A DNA stretch of 64,000 nt, taken from Amoebophrya sp. A120 (Eukaryota > Protista > Dinoflagellata). The DNA lies in contig CAJINV010000003.1 in assembly GCA_905178155.1 (NCBI GenBank), positions 7,735,882-7,799,881 of the forward strand. The letters run 5' to 3'. The notes under the pieces were generated by a model. The model searched no databases and was not told the DNA's origin. It saw only the letters and a list, made by a program, of their open reading frames with translations. Within the stretch, counting starts at the first letter, position 1. Each line of letters begins with the position of its first letter. The position numbers and the translations under genes were made by a program. Shown here piece by piece: positions 23,451 to 50,297 of the stretch.

Positions 23451-26400
23451 TCATGAGGCAGGTTGAAAGCAGATTGCATTTTGGTAGGGATCCCTATCAA
23501 ATGTAAAAGTGTCTGGGTCTGGAAGATTGCCAGGTTTGTCATCATCATCATGTAGTGGACACCCGCTCCCAGCGCCACAGGTCAAGGATCCCCTCCCCGG
23601 GGGGTGGGCGTGCGAGGAAGCACTTTCGGCGACCCATGATGTCTTTGATGCATATTTTGAATGACCCATGATGTCTTTGATGCATGCCCTAGCATCACAG
23701 ATTTTTAGAGGACTTTGTGATGCCTCTACCGCATGAGAAATGCCCTCTCCACGTAGCACAAACTGGAGTCCTTTTGCTGGTCATGCAATACAAATTTTTT
23801 TTAGAATCCAGTTTAGAATCTTCCAGACCCAGACATTTTTACATTTGATAATCCCTTCCGTCGTCCAAAAGGTCTAGTTCGACGTAAACCTGTTCCAGCG
23901 CCTCTTTGCAGTTACCGATGCGGACGTCGATTGTGCGAGGGTCGTATTTCAGTTTTTTCACCTCGTTCAACGCCGACTCCAGTGCCAGTCGCTGTTTCAT
24001 TAGCTCTGCGTAGGTGCGCTGGCTCTGGTCGATGCTGCCTTGACGGGTGATAATTTCTCCGAACCGGTCATTCAGGTGGTTTAGTCGCACATTTAAAATC
24101 CGGAACTGCTTTGCAAGTGCGAGCAGAATGAATAACACCCCGAATATGGCCCACAAAAAGAGCAAGGTCATGCCGCCCCGCAGTCGATTTTTGAAACTGC
24201 CGTCAAGGATATTCATGAAGACGCCGGGTGCCAGCGTCCCCGCAGCGAAACCCAGCACATTGAAGGACGCTTGCGCCACCGCGCTTGCAGTCGCCCGGAA
24301 GTCGCTCCGAACCTTGTGTCATTTGGAAGCATCACTCTTCGAAAAGTAGGAAAAACTTCAAGTTTTATTCTCGGCATATAGTTTCGCGCTCTGTCTTTGG
24401 GACAGACACCGCAGCCGCAGGGTTGCGTGAACTATGTATCAAACTCTTTGTGTTTGTTGACTTGTGTAGAACAAAAAAAGCATCACGTGTTGTATGAAGC
24501 TTAGATAGCGTACCACGCTGAGCATCATGCCCGTGAGGGCAGGCACCATCGCGCCCCCGAAGAAGAGAAGGAACCACAACAGCACGACGACCGCGTAAAA
24601 TTGGCCCATATTTTTTCCGTGGGGAACAAACGCGGCGGCCACTCCGCAAGCGGTTGCGAGAAGCGCGGAGGTAAGTAAAGCCTGCATGGTGGAAATACGG
24701 GCGCGCAGCCCGTCGTAGCCCCCGATGGAATCGATGAAGAGGCCGCCGAATACTACTCCCAGCGCGGGGCCCGTGGCGGCTACAATCGAAAACGCTATAA
24801 TGACCGTGATCTTAAACGACTCCTCCTTTTCGCCAGGCGGTCGAAATACCTCTACCGTACTATCCAGGGGAAAACAGAAAGAAATCAGTGCACGGTGGCA
24901 ATTTTGGAACCGAAGCCCGGTTGGTTTTTCTTCTTGCACGTATCGCTATACATACAAGTTGAAGTGTTTTTTATTTCTTCTTTCACTACCGTTGCTTGTT
25001 GCACCCTTGCCGATTCATGCACAGCAGGGAAATGGCCGTATCACAAAATCTTTCCGGCATAGAAGTAGATGGTCGCCCAGTACTGCACGCCGGTAACGAC
25101 GAAGTACAGTACCGAGAGCGTCAAAATGCACAGCACGAAAACTGTGTTCCGGCGCAGCCGCATCACGCGCCGCAGCATGGACGGAGGCGCGGGGGTAAAT
25201 TGAGTGTTTGTTGAGAGTGTACTAATGCGAAGGTTCCTGTCCTTGTTTAGTTCATTTCTTCCGAGGGCGGAAGACGTTGCGGAGCTAGAGTGCGCCAGCA
25301 TCTTGTTCGTTCGCACAGGATCATCATCCGCTGCTTCCGGGCTTTCCTGTGCCGTTCCCTCCTGGTCGGCCGGGGAATGAGCTTTATTCGACCCTTCAGA
25401 AATAGGGGGGAAATCGGGGTGATCGCGCGACGAGGGCGGCTGGTTGCAGCCGTCCAGATGGGCAACGATGTCGTCGAGCGATCCGTTAGTTTCGCCAGCG
25501 GGCGTGTTCTTCTCGCTTTGCCACATGCGCTGCAAGTCCACAAACTCAAAGCTGCGATTGCTCTCTAGGACCGAAGGCGAATTCATCAGCTTGGCCTTCA
25601 GAGTCATCGAACAGAAAAACGATTCGCAGTTGCATCTCAGTATCTACTTTGGTGCCGCACGGACGGCCGCAGCAGGATTCAACATGCAAAAGGATCCACA
25701 ATTCGTCATTTTTTGATGTCGGGCTCGTCGTCCTGCACAAAAAGATACGTGTAATACATCGAGATGCGCACCATTTTGTTTTTCGGATACGGGTGCGCGG
25801 TGCAGGGCCCGACGAACGCGACGCCTGCGTCGCCGCACTTTGCCTTACGTTATCCGTGTTGTCGGGCTTCCTTTTGGCGGGCGAAATAAACTGATCCCGC
25901 CATTTGGCCATCGCTGGAGAGGACCATGGATTGTCGACGAAGCGCACGGACGTGAAAAACAGGAAAATGAGCAGGATCCCCAGGGAGATGCATTGGACGT
26001 GTGTATGGAATTTCACCGCTGCAGGAACGAAGTGTTCGGCTTCATTTTTGTTTTCATCTTCTGATCAACATGTTTGCTATAACGAGCACAAGAAGCACAT
26101 GCCTCACACGGACACGGTCATTGGTTTTCATATTTTGCACTTCAATACATGTAGTCCGGATCAAATCTCGAAGTAGAGTTGTGGCTGACTTTAAAACGAG
26201 GAAGTTTCAGTTACTCGGCATGACCTTCGAGCATTGGCAGGGTGCCACAAGGCCTCCTTCGTTCTGCTGCTACTCCTTCAGCTCCTTAACTCATGGCGTA
26301 CGACCAGTGAACCTCGGCGGAGACCAGCAAACCGGCTACGAGGTACCTGAAAAAAAGGAACGTGCCAGGTCGAAATCTGCGTGATAGCATCATGAGCAAT

Positions 26401-27804
26401 GACATCGACCCTTTATCTGAGCAATAAGTAGGCCAACCTTGTTGTCCCTAATGGTACAGAGACCGGTAGAAAAAACAAATGACATTCACTCACTTTAAGT
26501 TGTTGGAGATGAAAATGTAGTCTGTTTTATATACCCGAGCATAACTCCGAGGGGCACGCCGACCTGAAGCAGGGCAACCCAGAGCGTTTTTGTATCTAAG
26601 GGTGCAAATTCCTCTACCCACACTGTGGAGTAGATCACGAAGGGCGCCTGCGTGAAGCCGATAAAGCCGCGGGCCACCAGGAGATGCCAGTATTCACTCG
26701 CGAACGCGAGAAGCGCGCAGAACATGGCATTGAACAAGAGGGCAAAGATGAGAATGGTTTTCTGCGAATATTTGTTCAACAGGAACCCGAAGATGGGCGC
26801 CGCCACGGTGATCCCGAGGTAGGGAATGCAACCCAAGGTGCCCAACGCGCTGGGTTCCAGGTCGAACTCCTCTTTAATGATCTCCAGCACGGACGGAATG
26901 GCGCCGCTGTCGTAGTTCACAAAGGCCTGGATCGTATGAGAGCACACAACTCCCCCTCCCCCTCATTTGTACCGCATGAACGCCAGCAATAGAAACAACA
27001 GCACACGTGGAGGGTGTGCATGACAAGTTCATGCGCCGAATGTAGTAAGTAGCAGTACTTCTATTTGGGCTTCATGCATAATAAGTAGAGGTGACACAAC
27101 GGAACAACTGGAGTTGTGAATTTTGCATCAGAAATGAGAACGAGGGGGTGGAGTTGTGCACTCGGATAGATCAGCAGCAGAAGCCGGAAGGTGTGCCGAA
27201 CGGCCTTGCGCTCCTCGCGGGGGTGGCCGCAATGGGCCCGCCCAAGCGCTGGCGTGGATACGGCCGGCTCTGGGTAGTGTGGAACAATCGCAAGATGATC
27301 TGCTTGATGTAGTTCATCGCTGTCTTTGACGAAGACTTGTAGTTCTTCTTGTTGTTGCGCCGCCCCAAGGTCTGTTACAACTTCGACAACCGGAACGGCA
27401 ACACTTTGGCTGTTGGCGGCAAGATTGTCGGTGTCAATGTTGAGACCCGCGCGCCGGGAGTTGCTAGCGGAGGACGACGAGGAACGGCCCGCTTCCTCCG
27501 TTCCCGGCGGCGGGTAAATGGTTCCACTCTCCCCGCCCGGCACCAGTTCGACCTCAACTCCTGCAACATCCAGGGGCGGGGGTGATGTCGACGTGCCCCC
27601 GCTGACCATTCTATTTGGGAACAATCGGTTTCGGGTCTGCGAAGAACTCTGGCTGCCCGCTCGGCGCGTGGTGGAACGACGTTCCGTGCTGTCGTTCCGT
27701 ACTGCCGTACTATATTCTTCTTGTTCTCGTCCCCAACAACTACTGCTGTGCTCGCTCAGGAGTGTCTGGCGGGTAGCTTCGCGCGCAGTGCCGTCATGGA
27801 GCAT
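23451..27804 (-). CDS. Spinster-like MFS transporter, multi-exon
   Basis: Exons: IQAFVNYDSGAIPSVL..LLVARGFIGFTQAPFVIYSTVWVEEFAP; LSVLYFVVTGVQYWATIYF; ATGPALGVVFGGLFID; MLSV|VRSDFRATASAVAQASFNVLGFAAG. The last exon follows the element at 23495-23850. Confidence 0.82.
23495..23850 (-). mobile_element. TIR introner-like element (CCAGACCCAGAC family), 356 bp, TSD ATCCC (+ strand)
   Basis: About 30-bp near-perfect TIR TATCAAATGTAAAA(G/A)TGTCTGGGTCTGGAAG. ATCCC at 23490-23494 and 23851-23855. Internal 23-bp direct repeat GACCCATGATGTCTTTGATGCAT. Removal gives DDGRDPYQN. Confidence 0.93.
24861..25061 (-). mobile_element. Probable degenerate TAT...ATA element acting as an intron in the MFS gene
   Basis: Begins TATCCAGGGGAAA and ends TTTCCGGCATA, between two MFS exons. 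No intact TSD. Confidence 0.4.
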
Positions 27805-28333
27805 GCTCGGCGCTTTCGGTCATTCGCACGAGCAGCAGTATTCGGGAACAGCAACAGACATCAAACGGGGAGTTTTGAGGAAGGAATGAAGTAAGGAACT
27901 ATCAGCACATTGCATTTGCAGTCCCGACGTTCCGGGCGTGCCAGAAAGTAATAGTTTGGTATCGTCCGCATTTTTGCCAAAGAACGAATGGCGTAGTTGT
28001 GAAGCTGTTGACAAGTCTTAGTTGCAGTTGGTTCACATACTGAGATGCTGCAAGTATGTAAGTACACATGGAACTGGTATCTGATATCTGTGTCTTTTCG
28101 TCAGACGACCAGCGCATGTGGATATACCACTGGAAACAAATTACAAGAAAGAATAAGAAAGAAAGAAAGAAACGAAAACAACCGAACAAGGTGACGAGCG
28201 ATGTAAAAGCTGCCCACGAGGTATCTCCACAGGTTTTGACATGTGCGTGTTATTTGTGGCACTGACAGCCACAACAAGAAATATCTTGCAAAAAAGTATA
28301 CGCGCGGCGTCTGCACGTTATTGATCGGTGAAT

Positions 28334-28669
28334 TCACCACGTACTGAGTTTTTTCTTTTTACTGGCAACAAAGTGCAATTTCGACCCGGATGAGCTACTT
28401 CCTGCTTTCTTTCCTTCCGTTTTCTGGCCCTCCTTTTCGTCCCTCCGCAGTTCGGTGTCAAGCTCCCGGAGCCTTTGGTGCTTGGCTTTCTGCTCCTCAC
28501 GAACACGGGCGAAGTTCCTCTTGCGGGTCTTGGCATCCTGGCAGCCGAAAAAACGCTGCTGCGGTCCTCGAGGAAGCAAGAGTGCCGAAAACGCAAATCG
28601 ATAGGTCGTCAGTGTCCTCGCGATGGTCAGAGAGGCTGGAGTCGCGGTGCAGCCCAACCACTTTAGCAT
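28334..28669 (-). CDS. Small basic hypothetical protein, possible mitochondrial presequence
   Basis: 111-aa ORF with an Arg/Thr/Leu-rich N-terminus followed by a charged helix. No homology recognised. Confidence 0.35.
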   Translation of the reverse strand: MLKWLGCTATPASLTIARTLTTYRFAFSALLLPRGPQQRFFGCQDAKTRKRNFARVREEQKAKHQRLRELDTELRRDEKEGQKTEGKKAGSSSSGSKLHFVASKKKKLSTW

Positions 28670-29181
28670 TCGATCTACAAGAACATATAGGCGGTTAGCG
28701 TGGATTCATGATTGTTTAGAAGTTAAACTAAAACGATCACGGTGCTCAGTGAAATAACGTAAGACTATCACCTTTCTTTTGAACATTTTCACGTATATGG
28801 ACGAAGTCGTTCAAGGCATCGCTCGAGCAGCGTCAAGGCTGGTCGTTCTTAGTGGTCGCATCTCTTGAAACCTACCCGGATTTCGCACGACTCAGAGATA
28901 ACTAAGTGTAAGGTTGATTGCAACACGAAGACTTCTCAATATCGTCACGACGAGGAACAAAAGTATGCATCGAAGTTGATTTCGGTGTCGTGGGTATCTT
29001 AGAGGTCGTTCGTCCGTTTCCTCTTGTCGTACTTCTTGATCTTCTTATCTACTCCGTTCTTGCATGATATTCTTCACTCTACTATACTTGTTTCGGGAGT
29101 TGTACTTCAGAATTGCCAGCAGATATGAGAGAAAAGGATCATCGTATTGAAAATGTGTTGCTGGACGAACGTAGAAGTCAG

Positions 29182-30765
29182 TTACATGGATTCCCTGCGT
29201 CCAATTTCTGCACCAGCGGTACTATTGGTTGCAATGCCGGTCTGGCTGCGTGTCGGATCTCCGAAAAGCACATCGAGGCTCCCTTTGGTCAAAACAAAAC
29301 GCTTTCGGCCCGCTTCGGTCCTTCTGCTACTCACCAGAGCTAGCGCTTCGGAAGAGTCGCTTCGTGCCAGAGGCCCCCGCGTGAGCCCTCCAGCATGAAA
29401 GACTGCGCCGTGGTCCGACATAGAAGCTGGGGGCGGTTGGTCTGCTGCCCGGGAGGAGGAGCCTTTGTCTCCCCCAACTCCGGACGAGGTTTTGTGCTCG
29501 TCACCTTGCAAAATGAGCGCCTCGCAGTTCTCCGGGTTTCGCATGCGCAGGAAGGTCTCCCAGTTCCAGTTCATCCATTTCATGAGGGCGACCCGCATGG
29601 CTAAGCCGTGGGTAACGATCAGGGCTACTTGTCCCTCCATCTCGGGGTGAGACCGGAAGTCGCGCCAGATGGTATGAAAGAAGAGACTCACCCGGTCAAA
29701 CACGTCGGCGCTGCTCTCGCCGCCCCGCGGCCGCGAGAAGAACCGGCCCGCGGACATGGACGTTTCTTCGCCGGTCCAGCCGAACGGCAGTTCGCGCTCG
29801 CGGATGCGCGGGTCCTCGATCACCCGAGCGATCTCGATGCCCTGCTCCTGCAGCGACTCCGCAACGTGCTGCGCGGTCTGCCGGGTGCGCACGTAGGGGG
29901 AGCAGTAGAGAAAGACCTTCTTGTGTACTTTCTGAGTCGTGCTCGCATTGATCATTTTCTGTACTTGTAGTTGCAGCTCGTTTGGAGGGACATCTGCCGC
30001 TCCGACGGGGGCGCCGCTTTTAATATTTCTGCTTGAGGACGAGTTTGCTGTGCCTGTAGTCCTTGCGGTCGTGCAAGATGTAGCTGTACTCGTCGTCGTG
30101 TTGGTTTTATTAGTTGTTACGGGAGGGCCGCTGCTGGTCAGGGTCGTGGCGCTCGTTTGCAAGTTTGTCGTCGTCGCAGGCTGGTGGGCACCAGCACCTT
30201 CTTGTTGCAGGAGCAAAAGTTCGTCGAGCGTATTCGCGTCAGCGGGTGCTTGTTGATGCAGTTTATGGATGACTTTCGCGAGCCGCTGGCCCGCCTGCTT
30301 TGCCTGCAGCACGCCCGTTGGCGTGAGTTCTATGTAGGTATTGAGAGGAAAAATCCCCCCTCCCCATATTGAAAAGGTAAGTTTAGAAAAATTTGCGTTG
30401 CGGATTTGAGGTCACAAATCACATCTGTCTTGCAAGAAGACAAGGGCAGAAGCTTCCGCCCCATTATGAAAGCAATTTGCCATGCTGCTGGGCCTAAAGG
30501 GGAATCGTTTGCCATGCTGAACAGCTAGACACGTGCGCCTCTACCTAGCCTGGGGACCTGGCCGCAGTGCCTCTCTGCAATACAAAGCTGATTTGTGGCC
30601 CCAAATCAGCATCACAAATTTCCGTTTTGATATGGGGTGGGAGGATTTTTCATTTTGATAGTAGGGGTCGCCCTTGGAGGAGTAGAGAGACGGGTCCACA
30701 TTGGCTTCGCTCTCGCCGTGACGCAGGAACACGATCGCGGACGGGTTATCCTGAGTAAAATCCAT
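29182..30765 (-). CDS. Histidine phosphatase / phosphoglycerate mutase family protein, 2 exons
   Basis: FLRHGESEAN...KGDPY|IELTPTGVLQAKQAG; YCSPYVRTRQTA; EDPRIRERE; GGESSADVFDRV; LIVTHG; NPENC. Confidence 0.9.
30339..30660 (-). mobile_element. TIR introner-like element, 322 bp, TSD GTAGG (+ strand)
   Basis: About 44-bp imperfect TIR: TATTGAGAGGAAAAATCCCCCCTCCCCATATTGAAAA versus TATCAAAATGAAAAATCCTCCCACCCCATATCAAAAC. GTAGG at 30334-30338 and 30661-30665. Removal rebuilds the conserved D..LT..G..QA motif. Confidence 0.92.
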
Positions 30766-31074
30766 CGTCTACACCCCAGATTTTATTTCATGCAATTCTG
30801 CATGCTCAGGATGTTTCTCATGCGCAGCTTGCTTCATGAGGAGCATTTGTTTTGGAACAATTGGAGTACGGCTTGCTATAACCAGCATGAAAAGAACGAT
30901 CGCGATTTTTTGTGACACGCACGCATTAGGTAAAAATCTTGACTGCGCTGCGAGCAGTCCACCCGTTGCGCAACAGCGAAAGCGTGTTGATGTGTGTACG
31001 TACACAAGCCACCAAGTTCTTTTTGCTAAGCACCCATCTTGACAGACTATGGGGTGATGTCGTGGGCCGCGTTT

Positions 31075-31344
31075 TTACTTCGGATACGGGTAGTAGCTGC
31101 GGTGGGCGTCATGCACGTGCTTCACCTGCTTCTCCAACTCGCCCACTCGCTTTTGAAGTGTGTGCGTGAGGTTTCGGTCCCGAAAAAGCAGCACCGAGAA
31201 AAATGCGAGGCACAGGAGTGCGACAAGGGAGGCCCCGATCGTCGGGACGGCGCGCAGATCCAGCGGCGGGAATAATCTTCCCGCATCGGGTTCGTGCAAG
31301 AACACCGAGTCGACAATGAGGTGCCACATGTCGCTCAGATCCAT
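31075..31344 (-). CDS. Small single-pass membrane protein with coiled coil
   Basis: 89-aa ORF with hydrophobic IGASLVALLCLAFFSVLLF followed by a heptad-like segment. Confidence 0.45.
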   Translation of the reverse strand: MDLSDMWHLIVDSVFLHEPDAGRLFPPLDLRAVPTIGASLVALLCLAFFSVLLFRDRNLTHTLQKRVGELEKQVKHVHDAHRSYYPYPK

Positions 31345-32287
31345 AATCGTGGTGCTCCTCTCTACAATTCATAACACCATCGATGGAATAATCATAACTC
31401 CACAATTCAGAACATATTCAGATCATCCTCCTCCATTGCTGTTTCATTCGACTGGTTGCTCGTGGAAGTGGCTGCGAGATACCGGACAAACGCTTCAAAA
31501 TCGTCGTCCGTTTCTTTTGGTGGGATGATTTCCACGTTTTCTGGGTGCGGTAGTTCGAAAATCCGGTCCGGGCCGGTGTAGACAGACGCGGAGTCAGATA
31601 AATCAAGTTCTTCGTCGAAAAACAACCGTCTGCGCGTGCCGTTTTGCACCTGTACCAGGTGAATTCCAGAGCCGCTGAAATTGGTTGCGAAAGTACTGCT
31701 CGTCCCGTTGGAACTCGTAGTTGTCGTGTTTTCCCCTAGTGAAGAAGATGTTGGCCCAGAGTCGTCGTCGTCAAACAGGGATAATGATAAACGGCTGCCA
31801 GCGCTGGCGTTTGTGGTATTACCGGAAGATGATGTGTTGAAAGCGCTGAAGTCTTCGTCTTCATCCACCAGCGAGGTCCGGGAAGCAGAGGTACTAGTTT
31901 CATTAGTAACATTGGTCGCATTCACATCAATCGTGCTATCGACCACAGCCGCCTCCTCCTCCTATCCAAGAAAAAAACATTGTAGGTGTAACTTTTTTGG
32001 AGGAACAGCATTACAAATTTGTCTGGCATGACAGCAAAAACCTGTCATGCGCAGATAGTATGTGAAAACGCCCTTTGATGGGCCCTACGATGCATGCCAA
32101 GCACGACAGACGCAATCACCTTGCATGTTGCGCATCACAAATTTACACTAACAACGTTTTTTTCCTGCATACCTCCGGCGCGGAAACTACCGTCGTCGTC
32201 CCCCCGTCCACACTGACCGCCAGCACTGACAGTTTCCCGCATCGGGTTCGTGCAAGAACACCGAGTCGACAATGAGTTGCCACATGT
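31278..32287. repeat. 54-bp direct repeat pair (31278-31331 and 32234-32287), one mismatch
   Basis: TTCCCGCATCGGGTTCGTGCAAGAACACCGAGTCGACAATGAG[G/T]TGCCACATGT read at both positions. Confidence 0.9.
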
Positions 32288-32300
32288 TACTATCTAACAT
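31407..32300 (-). CDS. Ser/Thr/Asp-rich hypothetical protein with many NxS/T sites; 5' end unresolved
   Basis: ORF 31407-31946 extends upstream across the element at 31963-32171 (VVSAPE|EEAAVVDST). Confidence 0.45.
31963..32171 (-). mobile_element. TIR introner-like element, 209 bp, TSD CCTCC (+ strand)
   Basis: Ends TATCCAAGAAAAAAACATTGTAGGTGTAA and TTACACTAACAACGTTTTTTTCCTGCATA. CCTCC at 31958-31962 and 32172-32176. Confidence 0.88.
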
Positions 32301-32893
32301 CTTGCACTGACTGTCATTTGGGAGATGATGATGATGTTGGCAGAAAGGAGATGAAAAACAAGAAGCGATGAAATGATGCGTGCTACTTACATATTCCACG
32401 GCGCTCCTGCCTCCAAGGCAGAGCTACTGTAACGTGGGCCGTGGAGGGAAAATTGATATGGCTCTACAAATGATGTTGAGCTTGAAGGAGCTTGAAGGCG
32501 ACACTCTTCCTGAATGTAGGACTCGAATAAAAATTATGAACAAACACAAACAGACTGTATGATTTTGCTTGTAATATGCTCATCTTAGCAGTACTAAGTT
32601 AAAAACGATTTCTACAAGCAAAAAGCGCTGCCATCAATGGATCGTAAAACAGACAACAGAAAGCTTTCTCATTTCAAGCTGGAATTCTTCGAATGCACAA
32701 AAGAAGAAAGGTTATCAGAACTTTCCGTTAGAGGAATGAGATGAGAAGTGAAGTCATGTCGTTACTGGAAACTGACATCTTCTGTGGCACGGGAACCAAC
32801 AAAACTCCTGCAGGGTGGCAAGATTTTTTCTTTCCGGTTGTGTGTATCTGCCTTGTTAACTTCGCGAGGAATTTATCAGTGTATTGATGAATT

Positions 32894-34828
32894 CTAAAGA
32901 AAGTCGGTTTCTTCCTGCAGTAATTGGTCGTCGCGGACGAGGAGCGGATCGATTGCGGCTGTTTCCGGAAACAGCGCGCTCGTTTCATTACAATGAAAAA
33001 TGCCCCCCACTCCAGCACTTGGCAGCATTTGTATATGCAAACTTTTCCAATAGAAACATTCCCCGTCTTGCATATATCAGCATCACAAATTTTCCATGCT
33101 GAATAGCTCAAATTTGTGTTGCAAAGGAGCCCAACAGCAGGCGGATCTGCTATGCAGCAGATGCCTTGCGTGCCTAGATTCTGCATCAGAGAGGCTCAGA
33201 GTCCTTTCATGCAAGACAAAAACAAAAAGCTTTCATTTGGAAACTTTGCATGAGAAACTTTTGCAAGATCCGGGGTGGGGGCATTCTTCACTTGAATACG
33301 TTTGATGCCGACACTCCCGGCCGTAGTACACGGGCTGGGAACTGGCGTCCACCGGGCGCTGCCGAAATTCGTGGTAGTTCCAATCGGGGTCGTAGCGGTC
33401 TAAATAGAGGAACTCCCCTGACAGCGACACGCCCGCAACGACACAGAGCACCGCGTCGCCAACGGCGACGGTCTGTAAGCGGCCCAACGCCGACGGCGTG
33501 CTGGTCACGCCTGTGCGGCCAAGATTCAGCTTCCAATACACCGCTTTGTTGCGCGCCGCGTGGCTCCCGGACTGCGCGCAGCACAGCGCCCAAAGGACCG
33601 TGCCGATCTTGGCCGCATCGCTTGGCTTGCTTAGATGCAAGTTGAACTCCGGGTATTGCAGGCACTGTTTTTCGGTTTGCGATACGATCTTCCGTTCTAC
33701 CGCCCTGGCTGCGTTGTGTTCCAGTTCCAGTGGTTCGAAAAGATCAGGACGCCGTGCTGCTAACGCACGGTTTTGGCGGTCGTACAAGTCGCGGAGGCGG
33801 TGACACCCATGTACTGCATACTTCACGAGTTCGCCAGTGAGCGGACGCCTCCGCCACAGTGTGCTGTCCTCCGCCATCTGACGTTTTACGCGCTGCAGAT
33901 ACGACGTCGAAGTGCTGCTGCCGTAATTTATATCGGGCTTTTCATCTTCTACTTTGGAATGTGCAGGCCGCGTGATGTCAGCACAGAAATCCGATCCTAC
34001 TGACAAAGATTGAGTGGCGCAGGATGGAAGGGTTGATATCATTGCAGCACTACCTTCAGCGGTTTCTCGTTCTCGCAACACTGATGTGGCACCGGTGCGA
34101 CAACTTTTGTCCATACTGCTGTTGCCCGTCTTACCGAAGTGGTCCGGTCTACTTGGGGAAATAAAGTGATCATTTTCACAAAGGAAGGAGAGGGCCTCTT
34201 GGAAGCCGGAATGCGTGCTCGCTGGATGGAGCAGTGCGTGCGCCACTTGGGTATCGTAGACTGCCCGAAGGCGGATGTGGTGCTGGTGCCGAAGCGCCGC
34301 GGCGTCTTCCCGACAGTCGTGTACAACTTTAACTACGGAGGCATCCTCCAGAAGGGTGCGGAACGCAGCGACTACTTGTCCATTTGCCGCCAGGGCGTCT
34401 ACGAGCCAGCACGATTTTCGAAGCTCTTCAACAAGACCTTCGCTTTCATCATGCGTCCGAACGCACGAAGCCGCCGCACTACGGTCACGCGTTTCCATCA
34501 CGCTGCACGGAGCAGAGGGTAGTTCTTGCATGGCGCCGCAGTCTTGTTCTACTTTCGCGCCGGTTTTCTGCATCCTCTCGATCTGTTTGTCTTCATACTG
34601 ATGGGCGGGCGCTTTTTCCCGGGGTGACAGAACGCAGATTTGAAGGCTACACAGCTGTCCAAACCGACCTAGTGCAACTCCCTCGCAGTCGAGTCCGATA
34701 ACGCGTGCCATGGAACGTATTCGCCGCGCGGCACGGGCGGCCTGCGCGACGGTGGAAACCAAGTGTACCTTCAACATGACCTGCTCAGAGAGATCTTCGT
34801 AATCGTGCGCAAAGTCTGACGGCTGCAT
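32894..34828 (-). CDS. DEDDy 3'-5' exonuclease domain protein (EXD1/Egalitarian-like), 2 exons
   Basis: VIGLDCEGVALGRFGQLCSLQI; KVVHDCREDAAAL..VYDTQVAH; LWRRRPLTGELVKYAV. Last exon ..HQTSALFPE..TDFL* follows the element. Confidence 0.83.
32986..33298 (-). mobile_element. TIR introner-like element, 313 bp, TSD CGTTT (+ strand)
   Basis: Ends CATTACAATGAAAAATGCCCCCCAC and GTGGGGGCATTCTTCACTTGAATA. CGTTT at 32981-32985 and 33299-33303. One terminus is CAT rather than TAT. Confidence 0.85.
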
Positions 34829-35439
34829 TAAGTGAAATGATGAAAGATATGTGTGGCCGGCACAAGACGATCGCAAGAGCACGCATGCTGGCTACGCTGC
34901 CGTTCAGTTGTTACCCGGAACAGGGGGAAAACAATATGGCACAAGTTTCTTCGGTACTGTAATACAATACGAAAGGCTCGGGACTGCCGGCTCTGATCCG
35001 CTCTTCATTCAAAAACATTTACTTCGCAACGATTCGTTGTACTTTTCTTCAGATGTTGTTGTACAGAAATGTACTAGCTTTATTCCCGGGAAGTGCAAAA
35101 TTTCTGGCGCCAGTGCTCGGTAGAGATATTGAAATTCATCTGTAAATATATCTTCGAATCGTATTAAAATTGACTTCGGTATCTATTAATTTCACGGCGA
35201 CGTAACAAGCGAAAGGTATACTCTTTGACAAACTTGGAGACGCCTCGTGCGAAGATCTACACGTAAGTTTGAGAGCCGTAGAGCATCTTTCATTCTGTCT
35301 GTCGAAGTGCCGAGAAGTCTCTTATCCAAGAATCATAAGTACAAAAACAATCATCAAATGTTTTCCACCTGCTTTGCCTGGAGATGGGTGCGATCGAGCG
35401 GCGGTAGAGAGTGAAAAAAGTACTTAGCACGACTGCCGT

Positions 35440-36114
35440 TTGTTCATCTTGCCACCACGGTGGTTACGGGGGACGAGCCGCAGCGAGCTGTCGGGCAAGC
35501 TCGTCAGCAATAGGAGCGAGATAGCCCGCCAGTTCCTGTCGGACCGCTTGTACAACCGATTCCGGGACTCCCAAAGATTCCTGGACCTCGAGCGCCTGCT
35601 CGACAAGTACCTGGAGAAGATGAAATATAATGTGCAGCTAGAAGGACATTAAAACGTCATGCGTGCTGCTCTCCCGCGGGAATAGCAATGCTGAAGTCAA
35701 CCGCAGAGGAAAATTATCCAGCGGAACACCTCTATTATTTGTGAAGTTTCTATGCAACTATTCTCTACATGATAGTCATAGCGATTCGAGCAAAATACAG
35801 TGCTGGCGCCGAAAAAGCAACTACAAGTTTTGCGCGCGTGCACCTGTGTGTTTGTGAGTGAGTTCTATCTAAGTAAGTACCTTTATTTTTCCGGATCCCA
35901 GAAGGGCGTCAAGCTTTGTTCGAAGCTCGTCCGCCATGTGTCTTGCCGCCGCTCCGATAACGCGGAGCTGTTGAGGCTTACCCGCCTCTCTTTCTCTCTG
36001 GGGCTGCAAAAGCCCTGCCAGCTGCCGAAAGCGGTTCCCCAGAGGCACCTGCGCGCCGACCCCGTTCTGCCCGAACTTTTTGTCCCGGAGATGCTGCAGA
36101 GTGTGCAGCAGTGA
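35440..36114 (+). CDS. Candidate small spliced hypothetical gene
   Basis: Two GC3-rich segments (about 35440-35625 and 35875-36114) separated by an AT-rich gap. Junctions and start unresolved. Confidence 0.35.
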
Positions 36115-36809
36115 CTTGAGGGCCACGACGGGGCCCTCCGTGACAATTTTGGTGAATGTTTCGGGCGAAACATCGAGGACCGCACCTGGAAATAAAGCGA
36201 TTCATTGAAGAGGGCGCTTCAAAAGGAAAACCTTTTCGTGACTGTGAATGAAAGAACGAAAGCCATAGATACTTACTATACTAGTGCATGAAAATACTAA
36301 ATGCACAACAACTTTGGCGAAGAGGATGCTCCTTTTATTGGCATATGAAGCTCCTCTCGACGTATGCTGTAGTTTCCTCGTTTGGGAACAAGCAGGCAGG
36401 CTTCCACTCTGCGACATTTGTGTCTCCTGGAATAAAGGAGCACAGAAAGACAGTATACCTTCCGCGACCAAAAGATTCCTCCCGGAGCGAAAGTACAAAT
36501 CTGTCGCAACTAGTGCCTGTTGTCGTCGATACAGAGACTGCTCCAGCGGGGTGAGGTCCTCGGTCGACTTTGCGGCTGTTGTGTACTCGTTACTGAGCTT
36601 CTCCAAAATGTTTGTGTCCCACACCGACAGTCGCAATTCCTCGGATGAAAGCAGAAACTGTAGGTCGGCTGTTAAGTTGAACAATACAATTAAAGCCGAA
36701 TTCACACTGGTTCATTCGCATCGCTATCGTTTTGAAGTACTTTGACGGCGGATGAAGCGAGTGACTAGTTCCATCAACTCAGCGCATCATTTTTGTTCCT
36801 TCGAAATAC

Positions 36810-38425
36810 TTAGTTACCCGCTCCCTTCTCGTCGACGAGGCCTTGCGTGATCATGTCGCGCATTTGCATGTCGAGGGGGTCGTGTTTGTCGAGTGGACCC
36901 AAAAGGCTGCGAAAGGGACGCCGTCTTGCGGGAGCTTTTGGCGCTGTGTTTTTCCCACCTCCGAAAAGCTGGGCAAATAGCCCGCCAGCAGCAGGTATCC
37001 AAGAAAAAAACATTGTTAGCGTATTAACTTTGTGACGCGCAAGAACGTAAGCGCGTTTTCACGTACTATCTGCGCATCATGACAAGTTTCATCTGCTCTC
37101 GTGCCATAATGCTGTTCCTCGAAAAAAGTTACACATAAGATCTTTCTTTCTTGGATAGCAGGGGCTGCAGGTTCTGCGCCCGGCGCGTGCCTTTCCACGA
37201 CCTCGGGAACTTGTGTTTCCTCGGGGCCGATTTCGAGGAACACCACTACCTGTTCGGGCGTCCGCGGAACGGGAAAGTGGTCGTGTTTCAGTATGCTCCA
37301 TATCCAATTTGTCTCCGCGACGGATACCTGTCGATTTTTTGCCCCCTTGTCGCAGACAGAAGAAACGTCGAGAAGGCAACTGCGCTCAGTGCAGTAAGCG
37401 TCATGCATGCATCAGGAACTACAGGGGAGCCTAGTACAACCGAACTGCTATACTATTTGTTGAAGAGGCAGATAGTATTGAGAATGCTATTCCTGTTTCT
37501 TTTATAGTTCAAAAATAAGTAGTACCGGGTTGGTGTAGGTTATGTGATCTTCGGACGTCGCGGTCGGAAGGTAGTGATACCGAACTTTCGCTTTGCGTTC
37601 GAGCGGTGGCTCTGGTCTCCGTCTGTTGTTCGCCGCGATCACAAAGAACAAGATGACCCCGAGCCAGAGAGCGACACACGTTGCCGTCAGCAACTGGCAA
37701 AAACGGTTAAACCGGCGCGGCTTCGTGCCGGTCTTTCTCCCGGAAGAACCGGGCCCGAAGGACAGGGAGCGGCGGAAGTTTCCTTCCTCGTCGTCCTCGT
37801 CGGAACTCAAGAACAGGTCATCCAGGGAGGTGCGTGACAGCTTCGAGTACATCCTGCTGGCATCAACATACTGACCGCTGGCGCCCGAGCGTCGCCACGA
37901 GGCCACACTTCGTGCCGTTCGTGCTTGGGAGGCCGTTGCGGTTCCACGAGGGGCGGCCCCGAGTGCAGTTGTACTTCGGACGGACTTCGCCGCCTGTGTT
38001 CCTCCGCGACCGCGATCTCGATCTCCCGGCGCCCGCGGGCCAAGTATACTACTACTGCCGGCCGCGGCCGCTCCTGTTCCAGCACCGCCGCCATGCGTCT
38101 TGGCGTTCTTTCTGTTGTCCTGTGCTCGCCGCAATGACTGCTCCGCCTCATCTTCCTCCGAGCTTTGGTACAACAGGCTCGAGCGAGTTGGGTCGTGCGG
38201 CCCGTCGCCAAAAGTGTTCAGGTCCTCGTCGTCGGAGCTGCTACTGGCATCGAGGTCCTGATTGCGACGGTAGCACCAGGGAAACAGCAGCTTGCAGCAA
38301 ATCGTCCAGGGCGCGGGCGGTCGAGCCGGCCCGGCTGTGGGGTGTATTGACCTGGCCGGCTTCGATCGCAGCACGCGCGTTTCTCGAACTCCTGGCCAAT
38401 CATCGCTGTCCGACGACGCCATCAA
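36810..38425 (-). CDS. Hypothetical single-pass membrane protein, multi-exon
   Basis: ORF 37502-38425 has a low-complexity N-terminus and one TM segment. Downstream exons join across the element at 36996-37157 (EPAAPA|AGGLFAQLFG). Confidence 0.55.
36996..37157 (-). mobile_element. TIR introner-like element, 162 bp, TSD GCAGG (+ strand); same end family as 31963-32171
   Basis: Ends TATCCAAGAAAAAAACATTGT and TCTTTCTTTCTTGGATA. GCAGG at 36991-36995 and 37158-37162. Confidence 0.88.
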
Positions 38426-38877: not shown

Positions 38878-38940
38878 TGTCGCATCGGCACGACCACGAC
38901 CACGAAACTATGTCGCATCGGCACGACCACGACCAAGAAA
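38878..38940. repeat. 33-bp-period tandem duplication
   Basis: TGTCGCATCGGCACGACCACGACCA at 38878 and 38911. Confidence 0.8.
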
Positions 38941-39302
38941 GCAAATGGTGCGCAATCGGATCATAATCATCCAGGGCCGTACGAAGCCACGAAATAAAAC
39001 GAATAAAAATCGGATCGTTGCAAACCACTCGTGCGCTTTTTTCCGCGCCGACTTGGCGGGGTAGAGATTTCGTGCCAACCGGATAACTGAAACGTCTATC
39101 TAAGAGAAGCACCTCCCAGGACAAGTATGACATTCAACTTTGGTGAAACCGAACATGAATGAAGAGAAAAGTAAGTATCACGGCGACACAGGAGTGCTGG
39201 CAAGAAGTAGCTTCACCGCCCCAAACATTCTTTTGCGAAATGAGAATACGTTTCATGCGATCAAGCGACTCATTGGAAAGAGGCAGCCCAGCTATGGCTT
39301 CC

Positions 39303-43096: not shown

Positions 43097-43641
43097 CTTG
43101 TCTCTTAAGTTCTTCGAGCACGTCGTGAAACTGAAGGAAGCAAACAGAAATCCGTTCGATGCCTGTAAGTGAACTGTTTGAGAAGTTATTCCTCAGTGCT
43201 GCAGCCATTGCGAATACATATAGTTGATGTACATGAAGCTACATACTCCTTTTTCCGCCACTGCGCACGAGCAATTTGCGTCCACGCGTCACCATGATCT
43301 CGAGGTTAAGTACTCCCTACATGATTTACAAAGATACAGGGTACGAAACAAGAAGCGGGTCAGCTTGGGATCATATTCGCAGATTTTGCAACGTTTGAAC
43401 CACGTTCGCGATCAAAAACGATTGCGGGTAGATAGAGCAGGAACAACGATGGCACCTTTCGGACTCTATCCCTGGTTCGAACTCGCAGACGCACGAGCAC
43501 ACGAAGTTACTTTGCACTTGTTGATCAGTCCCTCTATATGCACATGCGCGTGGTTGCGTGCCACTCGTAGTAGCAGCTGCGGCCGCTACTTAAATTGTTG
43601 ATCCATCTTCGTCTCATTTTGATGACATCCGATGCGTTTTG

Positions 43642-45936
43642 TCATTCTTGTCCTTGTGGCGGAAATGAAAACTCGAATTGGCAGAGGAATCTCGGGACGA
43701 CTTGAGTGCGATCGTAGACGGCGTACTCGTTTAGCGCAAAACGTGTTTCCCGCTCCATCTCGGCCTCTTGCAGATCTCCCACCGCGAATACTATGTTTTC
43801 CTCTTCGGGCAGCTCTTTCGCATTTGTAACGGTCTGGTTCTCCACCTTGTCGAGAGCCACTCCTGCGTCTGCCCCGCCGTCTACGTCCATGGGCGCGGGA
43901 CCGTCCTTTTCCCCCTCGGCGGGACCCGGAGCTGGCGGCGGCTCAACACCAGCGGCGTAGGCCTCCAGCATGGCAGGCGAAAAGCTCACCCACTGGTGCG
44001 CCTGTTCGCACCCGAGTGCCAGGCCCGAATTCATCCCCTCCTGCCACATGGCCGCCTTGCTCAATCCGGGTTCGGGTCGTGTGGACGTCCGGACGTGTCC
44101 CAGCGAGACTTCGCACAACAAGGCCAGGCCGCGGTTTTCGTTTTCCGTGGCGTCGCACCGCCAGGCCGCGTAACTGAGGCAGTCCTGCAGATACAGTGCG
44201 GGGCCCCCGAGAGAGCCCTGCAGCTCCTCCCAATCCAACGGGAGGTCTTCGCACCAGGCGTCCGAGGTTTTTTTGCCGTCGGTTCCGGTCAGGCCGGGGG
44301 AGGCGGTGGGCAGCTGCAGGCCCTGCGTCAAAAGGCGCGCCCACTGCCGCAACGGTCCGCCGTACCAAAGCAGCTGCTTGTTGGGCAGGTCACATGGGTC
44401 CAGGTCTTCGGTGGGATTCTCTAATGCAAACACCTGCTCGAGCTTCAACGAAAAGGAGCGGTGTCGCAGCGCGTGCAGGTTTCGGGTGACGTAGTTCACC
44501 AGGGTGGGGATGGTGTGCGCAGGCTCCAGAGGGCGAAGCCGGTACTTGAACTTCTTGTACCTCACGTCGTGGGGGTGATCTGTGATTTCCAACTTGGCAC
44601 TGGAAGAAGCCCGCTGAGCGATGACCCGGTAACTCTCAACCGCCTCCTGGAGTCTCCGGAGATTCGTTACCTCCTCCGCCAGTCGTTGCGGCGTGTTGAT
44701 GATGAAATTCTGTACAATTAAGTGTTTTCAATTCACGACTCAACGACCATCACATGACACCGACACCAATGCGCGAAACATCATAGCTAGAAGAGACCAG
44801 CACACGACCAGCGGGGAATGTGCAGAACAGATTTGAGTACTTACTGTTCTCAAGCGCGACCACGAGAGACGGACACAGACTCGTCTCGAAATCAAAACAT
44901 ACGTACGTAAGTACTTCCATCTTCTTGAAGCCTGTGTAGTGCGGAATGAACTGGAAGAACTGCGACGTGAGAGTGCTCAGCTTTGACTGGCTGGCTCCGT
45001 CCAGCTGGTGCAGTTCGGTATTGATTCGCTTCAGCACCGCGAATGCCTCCTCCAAAACCTTCTCTGACACCGTTCCGAGATCAAGTCGCGCGGTGTCGAG
45101 TCCGATGTCGAAAATCTCTTGTTCCAGCAGATCTGTACGAAGGAATGACTCATACAACTTGATAAAACAATTGAAGCATCATGATATCATGCATGCGCGG
45201 GCCACTTTGCACCCATGGGCACCAGGCGCGATGTGGTGCGCATGAATCTGTGATATTTTTGAATGAAGCAGAAGCAGAACGGCCAAGAATAAAACTGTTG
45301 CGCATTGACAAGTTTTTGGGAAACTACTACTACATCACCTACCAACACTGTCTATCTTGGGTAAGATCTACGCGCCGGAAGCAGTTGCTTACCTTCGTCG
45401 CAGATAAGCTCCATGAGCACCTGGAGCGATTCTGGGAGGGTGCTAGGTTGGTGGCTGGTTTTCGTGGAGCCGGGGGCGGCCGGGTTCTTTCCCGGCGGCA
45501 AGTACTGGTACTTTCCGTCGACGTGTGTGAAGGGTTCCTTCCCGAAGTGGTTCGCGGTCTTGTCGTAGAACTTCTGCGTAAACGCTTGGAGGGCCGCTTC
45601 TTTCAGATTCCTCGGGTGCGTGACAGTACTGAAAATGACGTTGGCGTGCTGTCCCTCGTAGCCATGGCGTCCCCACCGGGTCCACAGCACGAACAGGCTC
45701 CCCCGCTTCAGGTCGTGTTCCAGCAGCTGGATGATGTAGTATTTGTTGTTATTGCGCGATAAAGAGGTCTGGTTCAATTTCGCGTTGTACAAAGCCTGTC
45801 CGTCCTGGTAGACATGAAACTCTTGTGCGTGGTCCGGGCAGTCGACAACCACGCCGTTCTTCAACGTCTTTCCATACCGGGAGCCGCCCTCTGCTCCGCC
45901 CGGCAGACCGGAGGACGAAGAGGAAGATGTTGCCAT
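43642..45936 (-). CDS. PARP2/3-like protein (WGR + regulatory + catalytic domains), multi-exon, divergent active site
   Basis: YNAKLNQTSLSRNNNKYYIIQLL..WTRWGRHG (WGR). LSTLTSQFFQFIPH (PARP_reg). NKQLLWYGG..LALLCEVSLG..NEYAVYDRTQV (catalytic). Confidence 0.85.
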
Positions 45937-46525
45937 GCTAGTAGAGCCTCTTTGGGTTTTCGACTTCGTCTACGTTGCTCCTCTTGATACCTACCTACGA
46001 GTCATCATCTCGGTGCTTGTTTTAGACAACTACGACGAGTGAGCACTGCGTAAAAATGAGTTTTGCGTCAATATCTGGAGGCGTGCCTGAAATCATGCAT
46101 GAGTTGTTCTTACCATATCATTCCTGCAACTACGAGGGAGCTGATGCAACGACCAATGTGGAAAATTGAGCAAAAGGACGAGTCACGCGACGACAGACTG
46201 GCACTTTTTCACTTCGCTTGTACTGCTGCACGAAGCCTTCTCTTTTTGTGCAGCAGAGCATCTTCACGGAGCGGCGCTACTAGTATCTAATCTATCAGGA
46301 GCCCCCTCTTCGGGCAAGAACAACATCAAGCTTTTCTTGTAGCATGTGAGTTTTCACAACCACGACAGAAGAAAACCCGGTTGCGTCAGATCTTCGAACA
46401 AATCAGGATCATGCAATTGGCGCCGAGGAGCCGTCCGTGGCGAACACCAGTGGGGACATCGTTAATACCGGGACCAGACAATGACGATGACAATTTTCAT
46501 CTTTGGCTTCGAAATCCTCGATCGA

Positions 46526-47976
46526 TTATTTTGTAGTTCGACCAGTGCTGCTTGTGTTCGCGGCAGGGTGCAGAGTTTGGAGCTTCTGCTTTACATCCTG
46601 TATGACAGCAACTGAAGTGCTGGGGTTCCCCTCAAAAATAGCCAGCGAGGCGCGTATATGAACTGCAAAAGTATCGCACTCGTATAAATGCATATACAAA
46701 TTTTCTCAGCATGAGAAATAAAATTTGTAATGCGGATTTACCTTCGGAAAAAGTTTGTAATGCATGACTGCAATACGAATACGATACTTTTGCACAGGAT
46801 AGCGTAGTGCGTCGACCGCCTCGGACTGGTAGGAATTCCCCTTCAACATGTACACCGTTCCCATGGCTTTAAGCGTTCGGGCGAGCTGAACTGACTGCTG
46901 CCCATACAGACCGCGCTCCAATTTCCTTGTTTGATTTTTTATCAATCAAGATTGTTTGAGTTCAAGGTATATATAAGATGAGCTCACTACACAATATACT
47001 AGGTCGACAAATAATGATCCAGGGCCTCGCTCTCGCCGCACGCACTTCGTTTCTCAGAACTAGGTACCACCAAGAGAAAGAAGAGGAACGCAAATTAACA
47101 AAATTAATACTGGACGTCCGCGAGGTATTCGAGAGCTTGGTCGTGCTCACGTCGTTTTATGAGGAGCAGCGCCAGCTCGCGTTTGATTTCGACCATGCGG
47201 GGGTGGTGCGCGTCGTGGTTTCGCAGCAAGTGCTCCACGTCACGAAGGCGGTCCAGTGCGGTCTTCGTGTCGGTCCATTTGGCCAGGCGGAGCGCCGCGT
47301 CCGTGGCGAGGTTGGGGTATTTCCCAACTTTGATCACCTTGTCGACGACCGACTGCTGCAGCGACAAGGCCTCCTCCTGGTCTCCGGCCAGGTGGTGGAC
47401 CCAGGCCATATCCAGCCACAGCAGGAGCGTCTGTTCGTGCTCCCACCCGAGACAGTGCTCGCGGATTTCCCAGGCCTGCGAGAGGTGCTCCAACGCTGTG
47501 CTGTACTCCTTCCGCGTGGTGGTCACTTTGCCCAGCAGTTCGTACGCGCGCGCGAGCTGCAAGTCCTCGGGGCCGTAGGCCTGTTTCAGCAGCGTGGCGG
47601 CCTTGTGCAGGCACTGCAGCGCGAGCTGATAGTCCTTTCCCTCTGCGACGTAGGCGAACCCCTCGGCCAGGGCCAGGCTGCTCCCGAGCCGGTGCGAGGG
47701 GCCGTTGTCGTAGATCTGGCTCTCCACGATCTGCTGCCCGTAGTGCACGTGCTCCAGGGCCTGCGCCACGTAACCCCCAAGACTGTAGGCCTCGGACAGC
47801 AGGCAGTGCTGGTGGCACGCGGCCGCGATGGGAAGGTCGTGCACGTCCACCAGCAGCTGCGTACTGGCCAACTGGTGGATCCGGCACTCGATCACGCCGT
47901 CCCGGTCCCCGACCGCCTCCAGTTCGGCCACTTTGCGCTCCAGCGCGTCTATGGAGCTCAGCGGGTGCATCATCAC
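46526..47976 (-). CDS. TPR-repeat protein (TTC23-like), about 3 exons
   Basis: Repeats such as LARAYELLGKV..KEYSTALEHLSQAWEIREHCLG and LARTLKAMGTVYM. The final exon DALR|ASLAIFEG follows the element. Confidence 0.78.
46657..46801 (-). mobile_element. TIR introner-like element, 145 bp, TSD GCGTA (+ strand)
   Basis: Ends TATGAACTGCAAAAGTATCGCACTCGTAT and ATACGAATACGATACTTTTGCACAGGATA. GCGTA at 46652-46656 and 46802-46806. Confidence 0.88.
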
Positions 47977-48961
47977 GCGACCAGGCGGATGATATTCGGT
48001 CCCTGTCGTTCTGCCTTGTCTCCTCGCCTTGGCCTAGAGGATCATGCTGTTCAAGTTTCGTGCACTCCGCCTGTGTCAATGCTCCTGTCGCACGCACAAA
48101 GAAAGAAAGACTCCTACGTCGACCACATGATGGTTTGTATCGTTATTATAACCTGCTTTATCTATATACTTTTGACTCTTCTTGACGAACTACAACATCT
48201 CCTCTCTAGTACAAACTCTTCCGGTCCTCTCCAACTTTTTGCCCTCATCGAAGCTTGCTTGCACACTGATCGCGATAATGTTCATTCGTATATGACGTGC
48301 TTCCTATTTTTACATTTGAGGAAATCATGAACATCTCGCTCGGCGACCACGGTGCGCGAATGTGTTGCCAAGTACCTGAAGCAGTTGGCTAGGAGTAGGA
48401 GTTGTGTGTTGCTGTTGTCATATGTGAGGGAAAAAATATGCTGAGACGTGTACTATAAATCGCAAAAAATTAGAGCAGGCACTGTTCCTACTGTTGACTT
48501 GCGTTCGTTATTTGGCACTCACACTGTTGGCGGAAATAGCTTGACGTCGTGCTTGAGGGGTTGTCGAGGCCTCGTAAATATTTCTTTGGTTGGATTACGT
48601 GAATTGCAACTTCGTTGCATGTTGCGACGGTGAAGAAGCAGGAGTGTGAAAATGTTCTCTTTTATTCTGGTCAAGACCTGTATGTCGTGTACTTCATCCT
48701 CCACACCATGATAAAGTCTTGAGGTGTCCGAGAGATTCAGGCATACGGATAGGATACGCTGTCGATATTCGTACATTGCTGAACAACAGAGTGCAAGCAA
48801 TTCCGCGTTGTCTCTTTGTGCCTTACCCTTCTACCAAGATACTTACTAGATATCACAGCTGGCGCATCTTCATCGTGGTAAAAATCGAACCGACAGTCAC
48901 GACCATCTTCGAGGCTATCAAACTTGGGTGAGACTGACAGATCTTCTCGCGTGGCAAGCAG

Positions 48962-50297
48962 CTAAATTGTCAGCAGGGGCCGACGGCGCAGGAGGTCCTC
49001 CTCTTGCCGCCAGTTGTGCATCACCTGGCGGTGGATCAGCAGGGGGAGTCTCCCGCCGTTGAATCGTAACTCCTTCTGGTTCACCAACCGGTCCTGCGTG
49101 GGGCGGCGGAAAATGGGGTGGGGGTTGTCTGGAATCTCCAAAATCCACACTCTGTTTTGGTCGTCAAAAATCCAGGTCGGCGGCAACTCGTAAACGAGAA
49201 CGTCTCCCGAATCTCGGCGGAGCTGCAGGCGAACGTGGTCCATGGAATGCGGGGGCCCGTACATTTTGCCCAGCTTGTGGCTGCTGTCCCCCAGGGGCCA
49301 GTCCCGCAGCTGTTTCTGCCACCTTTCCAACTCCTCGGCCTGCTGCTTCCGGCGACTCCGCTCGTAGCGCTGCCGGCGGTCGTGGCCCTCCACGCCGAGG
49401 CGGGCTCGCTCTCGCAGCGCGCGCTCCTTCGGGTCCACCGAGCTGCCGGGGGGCCCGCGCAACACCCTCGCCACCTCCTCCCGCAGCAGCGGATCCGCGA
49501 CACCGGCTGCGGCTGCCTCTGCGCCGGCCGCCCGTTCCTTGTCCGCCGCTTCTTCCCGCAGGCGCTTGCGGTCCTCGGCAAAGGCCCCGTACCCAATGGG
49601 GTCGTCGAACCGGGGGTCAGCGGCCCCCTTCGCGACCAGCCTCTTCCGCGGGTCGTATGGGTAGCGACCCCCGGGGGTCTTGCGTTGGTTGATATGCATT
49701 GCAAATATCGATCTGGGTCTGGGAAAGGACGAACTGGTACTGCGTGTTGCGGGCCCCACAAATTTCTGTCTTGCAAAAGATGCCAAACTTTCTGGCCATG
49801 CTGAGAGCGGGTTTCTCATGCACCAGAGTAGGCATTTTTACCAAGGGGCTCCAGAAGTTGTTGTCATGCTTAGCCCTGCGTAGAAGTTGCAGACTTTGAC
49901 TTTTCGGCACTTGGAAAACAAACTGAAATTTCGCAAGCTTCCAGATCCAGACCCAGACATATTTGCAATATGCATAGTTGAAGTCCGGGAACAAGAAGGG
50001 GCCTGTCCTCGTAAATTCCCGGTCTGCGCTGATGTCCACCCACTTTCCCTTGTCATCGTCGTACTGCCACTCCGGAGCGCCCAGCGGCTTCTTCAGCGGA
50101 ACGCGTTTGCTCGGTTTCCCGAAGTCGTACGGTGCCGTGGAAACCTCGGTCGCGCCCCTCCGCCCCTTGCCACCGCGAAAAAGTGCATTCGACCACGCCG
50201 GCGGCGGTCGCTTTTTTCTTGGTGGAACGTAGTCTGGCTGCGAGTGTGGCTTTTTCACCACAAAGTTGCTGGTCGGGTACCCCGCCTGAACAAACAT
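48962..50297 (-). CDS. Hypothetical basic Pro/Arg-rich protein, 2 exons
   Basis: ORFs 49617-50297 and 48962-49819 join in frame (FPDFN|QRKTPGG) when the element is removed. Confidence 0.7.
49693..49976 (-). mobile_element. TIR introner-like element (CCAGACCCAGAC family), 284 bp, TSD GTTGA (+ strand)
   Basis: Ends TATGCATTGCAAATATCGATCTGGGTCTGG and CCAGACCCAGACATATTTGCAATATGCATA. GTTGA at 49688-49692 and 49977-49981. Confidence 0.92.

Follow-up and report, generated by a model that had tools for sequence, protein, structure and literature searches.

How can short inserts that carry no usable splice sites be removed exactly from the transcripts of intact genes? This question is raised by a 64,000-nucleotide (nt) stretch of Amoebophrya sp. 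A120 (assembly GCA_905178155.1, contig CAJINV010000003.1, positions 7,735,882 to 7,799,881; hereafter the window), in which several coding regions are interrupted by elements with terminal inverted repeats (TIRs) and target-site duplications (TSDs). By protein identity, the host of these elements is Amoebophrya sp. A120, since three window proteins (represented by a phosphatase exon, the exon after 49693, and a TPR-protein exon) matched deposited A120 proteins at 100% identity. The elements, named here by their first position, are the A120 non-canonical introner elements of Farhat et al. 2021 (PMC7789003), and the system is therefore already known. A sequence-only reading of the window had singled out seven of them, proposing that most had no GT-AG register and that the paired TIR stem and the direct repeat guided their removal, either in RNA or in DNA. 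Our results very probably mean that the introners are kept in the DNA and are lost, together with one repeat, from the RNA, most likely by a U1-independent, end-tolerant spliceosome acting at the base of a hairpin.

All seven elements were present in the window, each with a TIR and an exact 5-nt direct repeat. They were 145-356 nt long, started with TAT (CAT at 32986) and ended with ATA, and their TIRs covered about 15-35 nt. The window elements followed the end pattern TAT-N7-AAA, with a shorter or interrupted A run in a few copies. A strict element rule gave 10 matches in the window, missing 32986 and 26935, versus none in 38 and one in 2 of 40 local shuffles of the window. Features of miniature inverted-repeat transposable elements (MITEs) were found: the elements were short and non-coding, had TIRs and a TSD of fixed length, and occurred in many copies. 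Their genome-wide repetition as families was represented by the very high summed contig depth over the elements in a DNA-like run, X1, and by family pairs within the window.

The possible cuts were analyzed by sliding the junction through the 5-nt repeat in transcript orientation, with the element and one repeat copy removed. The registers given in the sequence-only reading were reproduced for all seven elements. Neither a GT/GC start nor an AG end was available in any register of 30339 and 49693, and the best sense registers of the other five are listed in Table 1. None of the seven allowed a sense GT..AG register, that is, the GT/GC donor and AG acceptor of U2-type introns were missing from them. 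Among the 12 strand-assigned window elements, such a register was possible in two (12737 and 31963) and impossible in 10. GT..AG labels given to 30339 and 36996 by read alignment were rejected as antisense registers, the dinucleotides at 30338-30664 and 36995-37161 being readable on the antisense strand only. Strand-blind aligners would thus call both elements canonical, and such calls may bias the published counts of canonical and non-canonical introns. Because every target position is present twice, once in the exon and once in the intron, any register within the repeat yields the same mRNA, which implies that the system needs a consistent register between its two cuts and no fixed dinucleotide.

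Removal from RNA was observed in the RNA-like contig sets of four runs from one sample (X3-X6), aligned to positions 29000-37600; the raw RNA runs X9 and X10 gave 0 and 1 aligned read, respectively. Nine joints were found in this region, each of them in all four runs. In five joints, the segment removed was the element and exactly 5 nt more (327 nt at 30339, 345 nt at 30747, 214 nt at 31963, 318 nt at 32986, and 167 nt at 36996), and every one of the five elements in the region was skipped in this way, including three of the original seven (30339, 32986, and 36996). Four of these five elements have no sense GT..AG register. The remaining four joints read CT..AC on the plus strand and are GT-AG introns on the minus strand. 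One contig without the 36996 element was also without its four ordinary GT-AG introns, and this joint loss fixed the strand and identified these contigs as spliced RNA. No cryptic GT/GC-AG site in the vicinity was used in the RNA-like contigs over 29000-37600, it being in the nature of contigs to drop rare forms. Removal of the A120 introners at the RNA level, one of the two branches in the sequence-only reading, is supported by these exact skips. The two outcomes named in advance as contrary, use of cryptic canonical sites and untranscribed host genes, did not appear in the contigs of this region.

Removal of the elements also gave intact reading frames. The phosphatase had been said to need both of its exons, and this was borne out: its RHG motif lies upstream of 30339, retention of the element introduced an in-frame stop, and the spliced frame equalled the deposited 496-aa protein P0001. 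With 49693 removed, the frame equalled the deposited 348-aa protein P0011, and removal of 46657 yielded the end of the deposited protein P0012 (its last exon pair), collinear with P0013, the orthologue from A25. In the host of 36996, the joined 2,642 nt carried a 633-aa frame from the first Met. In-frame retention of the elements was rejected as an explanation owing to the stop in the retained 30339 element and to removed lengths that showed no three-base bias.

The same elements were retained in DNA. Run X1 had a flat depth of about 43 and gapless contigs. One X1 contig of 13,447 nt spanned 36996 and its four ordinary introns with no gaps or differences, and one contig spanned 30747. The edges of 30339, 32986, 46657, and 49693 were crossed by X1 contigs, some by fewer than 31 letters, at the depth of unique DNA (42-44). 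Full single-copy depth across the elements implied that the element-bearing allele was the main genomic form in the X1 sample.

Further copies were analyzed in a second assembly. One family pattern led to at least 186 loci (L001-L186), all on JACKZZ01 contigs of one other assembly, whose copies were 80-90% identical to those of the window; the top matches of these loci included no long flank match to the window. Among 77 copies selected at both ends with no repeat assumed, 70 had an exact 5-nt repeat and 5 had one mismatch, and the composition of the target repeats was near that of the flanks. A selection made with an exact repeat comprised 167 copies, of which 131 passed the strand call of a codon model and 36 were dropped. 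The end consensus of the 131 copies was TATCAAATGCAAAAAT ... ATTTTTGCATTTGATA. A GT-AG register was possible in 12 of the 131 versus 4.6 expected from the flanks (p=0.002), and neither end was available in 25 versus 35.1 expected (p=0.048). GT-AG was thus impossible in about nine in ten copies, and targets compatible with canonical sites were mildly overrepresented. Removal of the element and one repeat restored the frame in 29 of 39 strand-concordant cases, and the removed lengths, taken modulo three, were distributed 60:53:54, with no bias towards multiples of three. In one family, 31 copies had the same orientation to the inferred transcript and 14 had the opposite one; in the window, 31963 (its strand weakly called) and 36996 belong to one family in opposite orientations, and both were skipped in the RNA-like contigs. 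Both orientations seem to be tolerated, as judged from these strand calls.

Two properties of the elements themselves may be of use to the machinery that removes them. The first is the fold. All 12 window elements folded more stably than shuffled sequences (z from -2.2 to -8.8), versus +1.2 to -2.4 for the four ordinary introns, and the ends of 11 of the 12 paired with a mean probability of 0.41-0.99. The second is an internal motif, GCA[AT][GTC]A[CG]A, which occurred, counted in both directions, 43 times in the 3,356 nt of window elements and 24 times in the 60,644 nt outside them, with none in the four ordinary introns and a mean of 1.2 (maximum 6) in shuffles. The motif was defined on the 13 elements or candidates of the window, which makes the window count post hoc; it was also present in all 167 copies of the second assembly, a separate but family-biased set. 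Either a transposase or some splicing factor might make use of such a motif.

The anatomy of the elements, the identity of the organism, the exact loss from RNA-like contigs, the retention in DNA-like contigs, and the restored frames were all observed in this analysis. The series of events behind them may be pictured as follows. The short inserts, likely derived from transposons and ending in TAT...ATA, would be inserted by a cut-and-paste or related transposase that duplicates 5 nt of nearly any sequence. In the pre-mRNA, their ends would pair into an end-to-end hairpin. This hairpin, perhaps with a protein on GCA[AT][GTC]A[CG]A, would bring the two ends together, and an end-tolerant, U1-independent spliceosome would then cut at the hairpin base. 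In A120, U1 snRNA was not found and nearly all spliceosomal proteins are present (PMC7789003). A modified or tolerant spliceosome that works without U1 is on balance the catalyst we favor, because its components exist in A120, it acts on these very transcripts, and targets compatible with canonical sites are enriched. We give less credence to a fully sequence-blind and orientation-independent route, in which a factor would bind the motif repeats and the hairpin, and the two cuts would fall at a constant spacing from the base of the stem, with no need of U1 or any dinucleotide. Guidance of removal by the stem is plausible from the predicted folds: stable folding in all 12 elements agreed with that part of the sequence-only reading, but selection on the stem of the transcribed strand found no support.

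Several observations weigh against this picture and concern the hairpin, the strand calls, and the RNA data in turn. The ends of 12737 paired poorly (0.06). G-U pairs and A-C mismatches showed no sense bias, at 18:17 in the window and 57:48 in the second assembly (p=0.44), and the sense strand folded better than the antisense in only 9 of 12 elements (p=0.077). Transposon ends alone would give a hairpin of this strength, and with no sense G-U bias, a role of the stem is inferred and not proven. The codon model called the strand correctly for 10 of 11 window cases, some of them in genes from its own training set, and 14 of 53 cases with two usable flanks were strand-discordant. The RNA evidence consists of assembled contigs, all from a single sample that software guessed to be RNA; these runs may underlie the deposited gene models and are then not independent of them, and they showed splicing for only three of the original seven elements. 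Contigs also drop rare products, and no lariat, circle, or branch point was present among those assembled. Finally, the database protein at 23495 implied a 589-nt junction instead of loss of the element and one repeat.

The strongest rival concerns the catalytic step only. In place of the spliceosome, a spliceosome-independent endonuclease and ligase, or a second machine reading the hairpin, might remove the elements from RNA as full-length circles. It would account readily for the 25 of 131 copies, and for 30339 and 49693, in which no usable dinucleotide exists, as well as for the apparent tolerance of both orientations (31:14; 31963 versus 36996) and for the U1 snRNA not found in A120 (PMC7789003), and it has a precedent in euglenid introns, which leave as circles without lariats (PMC11282704). 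The mild enrichment of GT-AG-compatible targets speaks against such a route, as does a nearly complete spliceosome that handles ordinary introns in the same transcripts, and the CAG/CTG signature of Euglena (PMC12501133) is missing from the A120 element ends. We regard this route as possible and rather unlikely.

A second rival holds that the insertions break their host genes, or that their removal is imprecise and makes use of cryptic canonical sites. It draws on 23495, where P0015, a near-identical database protein for the MFS transporter gene, implied a single 589-nt TA..CA intron (23262-23850) that covers both this element and its degenerate neighbor at 23266-23486. The element lies in the last codons of the frame, where precise removal is not needed, and the alternative junction is itself non-canonical. 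Exact skips at all five elements in all four runs, and intact frames matching deposited proteins and an orthologue, largely refuted this rival for 30339, 30747, 31963, 32986, and 36996, and overall we consider it highly improbable. The 589-nt junction cannot slide and, if real, would put the 5' cut immediately upstream of TAT. In the case of 26935, the two repeat copies differ at their first base and P0015 keeps the upstream one, which excluded the register starting at the first repeat base. Both hints on the cut position rest on this one gene model, P0015.

The least probable rival is excision at the DNA level, limited to certain nuclei or life stages, with element-free alleles being the ones expressed. 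The internal eliminated sequences (IESs) of Paramecium are short inserts in coding exons with TA at both ends, and they are removed precisely from the DNA during macronuclear development, with one TA left behind. Although the A120 elements also begin and end with TA, the DNA branch of the sequence-only reading found no support and we can hardly credit it, because X1 keeps the elements at single-copy depth (in one sample, so that the IES property of absence from the expressed genome was not found), element-free contigs also lack ordinary GT-AG introns, and in the RNA joints both terminal TA are gone and what stays is one variable 5-nt repeat, not one TA. Amoebophrya is not known to have a germline/soma nuclear dualism. 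Rare joined forms are conceivable, as 15 of the 145 X1 joints were listed, these being filled by paralogous copies, and contigs drop rare alleles. Among those listed was an end-to-start joint at 46657-46801, seen in 28 X1 contigs. Such end-to-start joints might suggest excised circles, but the cases shown have 20-21 nt of other sequence in between and fit neighboring copies with a tiny exon; circles are conceivable among the other cases.

Table 1. Introner elements and host genes in the window
Feature	Position	Strand	TSD	Remarks
Introner element	12477..12685	+	ACGGG	Best register GT..GG; strand from open frame and codon model only
Introner element	12737..12992	+	GAAGG	GT..AG possible
Introner element	16220..16481	+	GATGG	No GT..AG register
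Degenerate sister element	23266..23486	-	none intact	TAC...GTA ends; 14/18 inverted-repeat matches; adjoins 23495
Introner element	23495..23850	-	GGGAT	Near 3' end of MFS transporter gene; best register GG..AG
Introner element	26935..27168	-	one mismatch between copies	MFS gene; no canonical register
Histidine phosphatase gene (His_Phos_1)	29182..31346	-		Three exons, 496 aa; start approximate
Introner element	30339..30660	-	CCTAC (transcript orientation)	Histidine phosphatase gene; no canonical end in any register; skipped in RNA
Introner element	30747..31086	-	ACCCG	Same histidine phosphatase gene; best register GT..CC; skipped in RNA
Introner element	31963..32171	- (weakly inferred)	GGAGG	GT..AG possible on minus; skipped in RNA
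Introner element	32986..33298	-	AAACG	3'-5' exonuclease gene; best register GT..AC; skipped in RNA
Introner element	36996..37157	-	CCTGC	Best sense register GC..CT or CT..AC, GT..AG antisense only; host transcript has four GT-AG introns on minus
Introner element	46657..46801	-	TACGC	Within TPR-protein exon; best register GC..AC; basis deposited protein and A25 orthologue
Introner element	49693..49976	-	TCAAC	No canonical end; basis deposited 348-aa protein

Some other features of the window were observed around these elements. The four ordinary GT-AG introns (35605-37522) have boundary repeats of 8, 4, 1, and 4 nt and contain neither the internal motif nor a strong hairpin. A 54-nt duplication (98% identity; 31278-31331 and 32234-32287) takes in the region where the phosphatase gene begins. 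Its two copies enclose a transcribed minus-strand open frame of 221 aa, which has no upstream ATG once 31963 is spliced. The frame hosting 16220..16481 is presumably cyclophilin-like, a label we took from its translated motifs with no family assignment. Further inserts that resemble the elements, with changed ends or inexact repeats, were found at about 60056-60289, 61340-61616, and 9307-9570, the first being related to 26935. The region 21000-23000 is A+T-rich (G+C fraction 0.39 in 22001-24000); it contains short internal repeats and lacks any long open frame. At 6676-9549, a single open frame encodes an amidohydrolase domain together with an M20 peptidase domain.

The agreement with published work is close. 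For A120, 66,565 RNA-supported introns were reported, 65% of them non-canonical, with introner inverted repeats of 8-20 nt that start with TAT, followed by seven variable bases and at least three A, direct repeats of 3-5 nt overlapping the exon/intron boundary, and a mean introner length of 240 nt (PMC7789003). The window elements share the organism, the TAT-N7-AAA ends, the boundary repeat, the want of fixed dinucleotides, the hairpin, and removal from RNA, and their lengths are near the reported mean. Nothing defining differs from the parts of PMC7789003 considered here, where the repeat is given as 3-5 nt and is sharply 5 nt in our copies (70 of 77). That paper also proposed hairpins, left the exact border position unknown, and, in the same parts, reported no transposase in A120. 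Later work placed the A120 introners among diverse transposon classes, including TIR families with integrase-like open frames (PMC12130899). The sequence-only reading was correct about the phenomenon, but a 2021 paper on A120 had already described it, along with the proposed hairpins and the apparent absence of U1 (PMC7789003). Beyond the parts of that paper compared, our additions are small: the sharp 5-nt repeat, the internal motif, the use of both orientations, and the mild enrichment of GT-AG targets. The last three are absent from the text parts compared, and the supplementary figures S19-S25 may show repeat length, orientation, or motif. No study solving the chemistry of A120 introner splicing was found in the literature searched, which did not extend to subscription articles (for instance, Roy et al. 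2023).

Other systems resemble the A120 introners in part. Euglenid nonconventional introns (PMC11282704; Nomura et al. 2025, PMC12501133) share non-GT-AG ends, terminal pairing, TSD-like repeats, and a likely MITE origin, and in the parts of these papers considered their machinery is likewise unknown. They differ in that in Euglena a CAG/CTG-type signature lies at a fixed distance from the intron ends (PMC12501133), which was not found in the 131-copy end consensus, whereas the A120 elements have TAT...ATA ends and an alveolate host. Full-length circular excision products were reported for euglenids (PMC11282704), whereas the A120 elements are known from contigs only. The introners of Micromonas, Aureococcus, and Polarella (PMC7789003, PMC11282704, PMC12130899) are likewise transposon-derived, have TIRs and TSDs, and occur genome-wide; unlike most A120 elements, they obtain canonical or near-canonical sites from the element or the TSD.

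This is not a new discovery, as the window belongs to the genome in which these introns were described (PMC7789003). Its data exclude DNA excision as the main route, and 30339 and 49693, with no canonical end in any register, are clean test loci. Mismatched target repeats (one mismatch in 5 of 77 copies) could be used with RNA-seq to map the cut position that PMC7789003 left unknown. The elements of the window bear on how tens of thousands of signal-less introns are precisely removed in an organism that has yielded no U1 snRNA.

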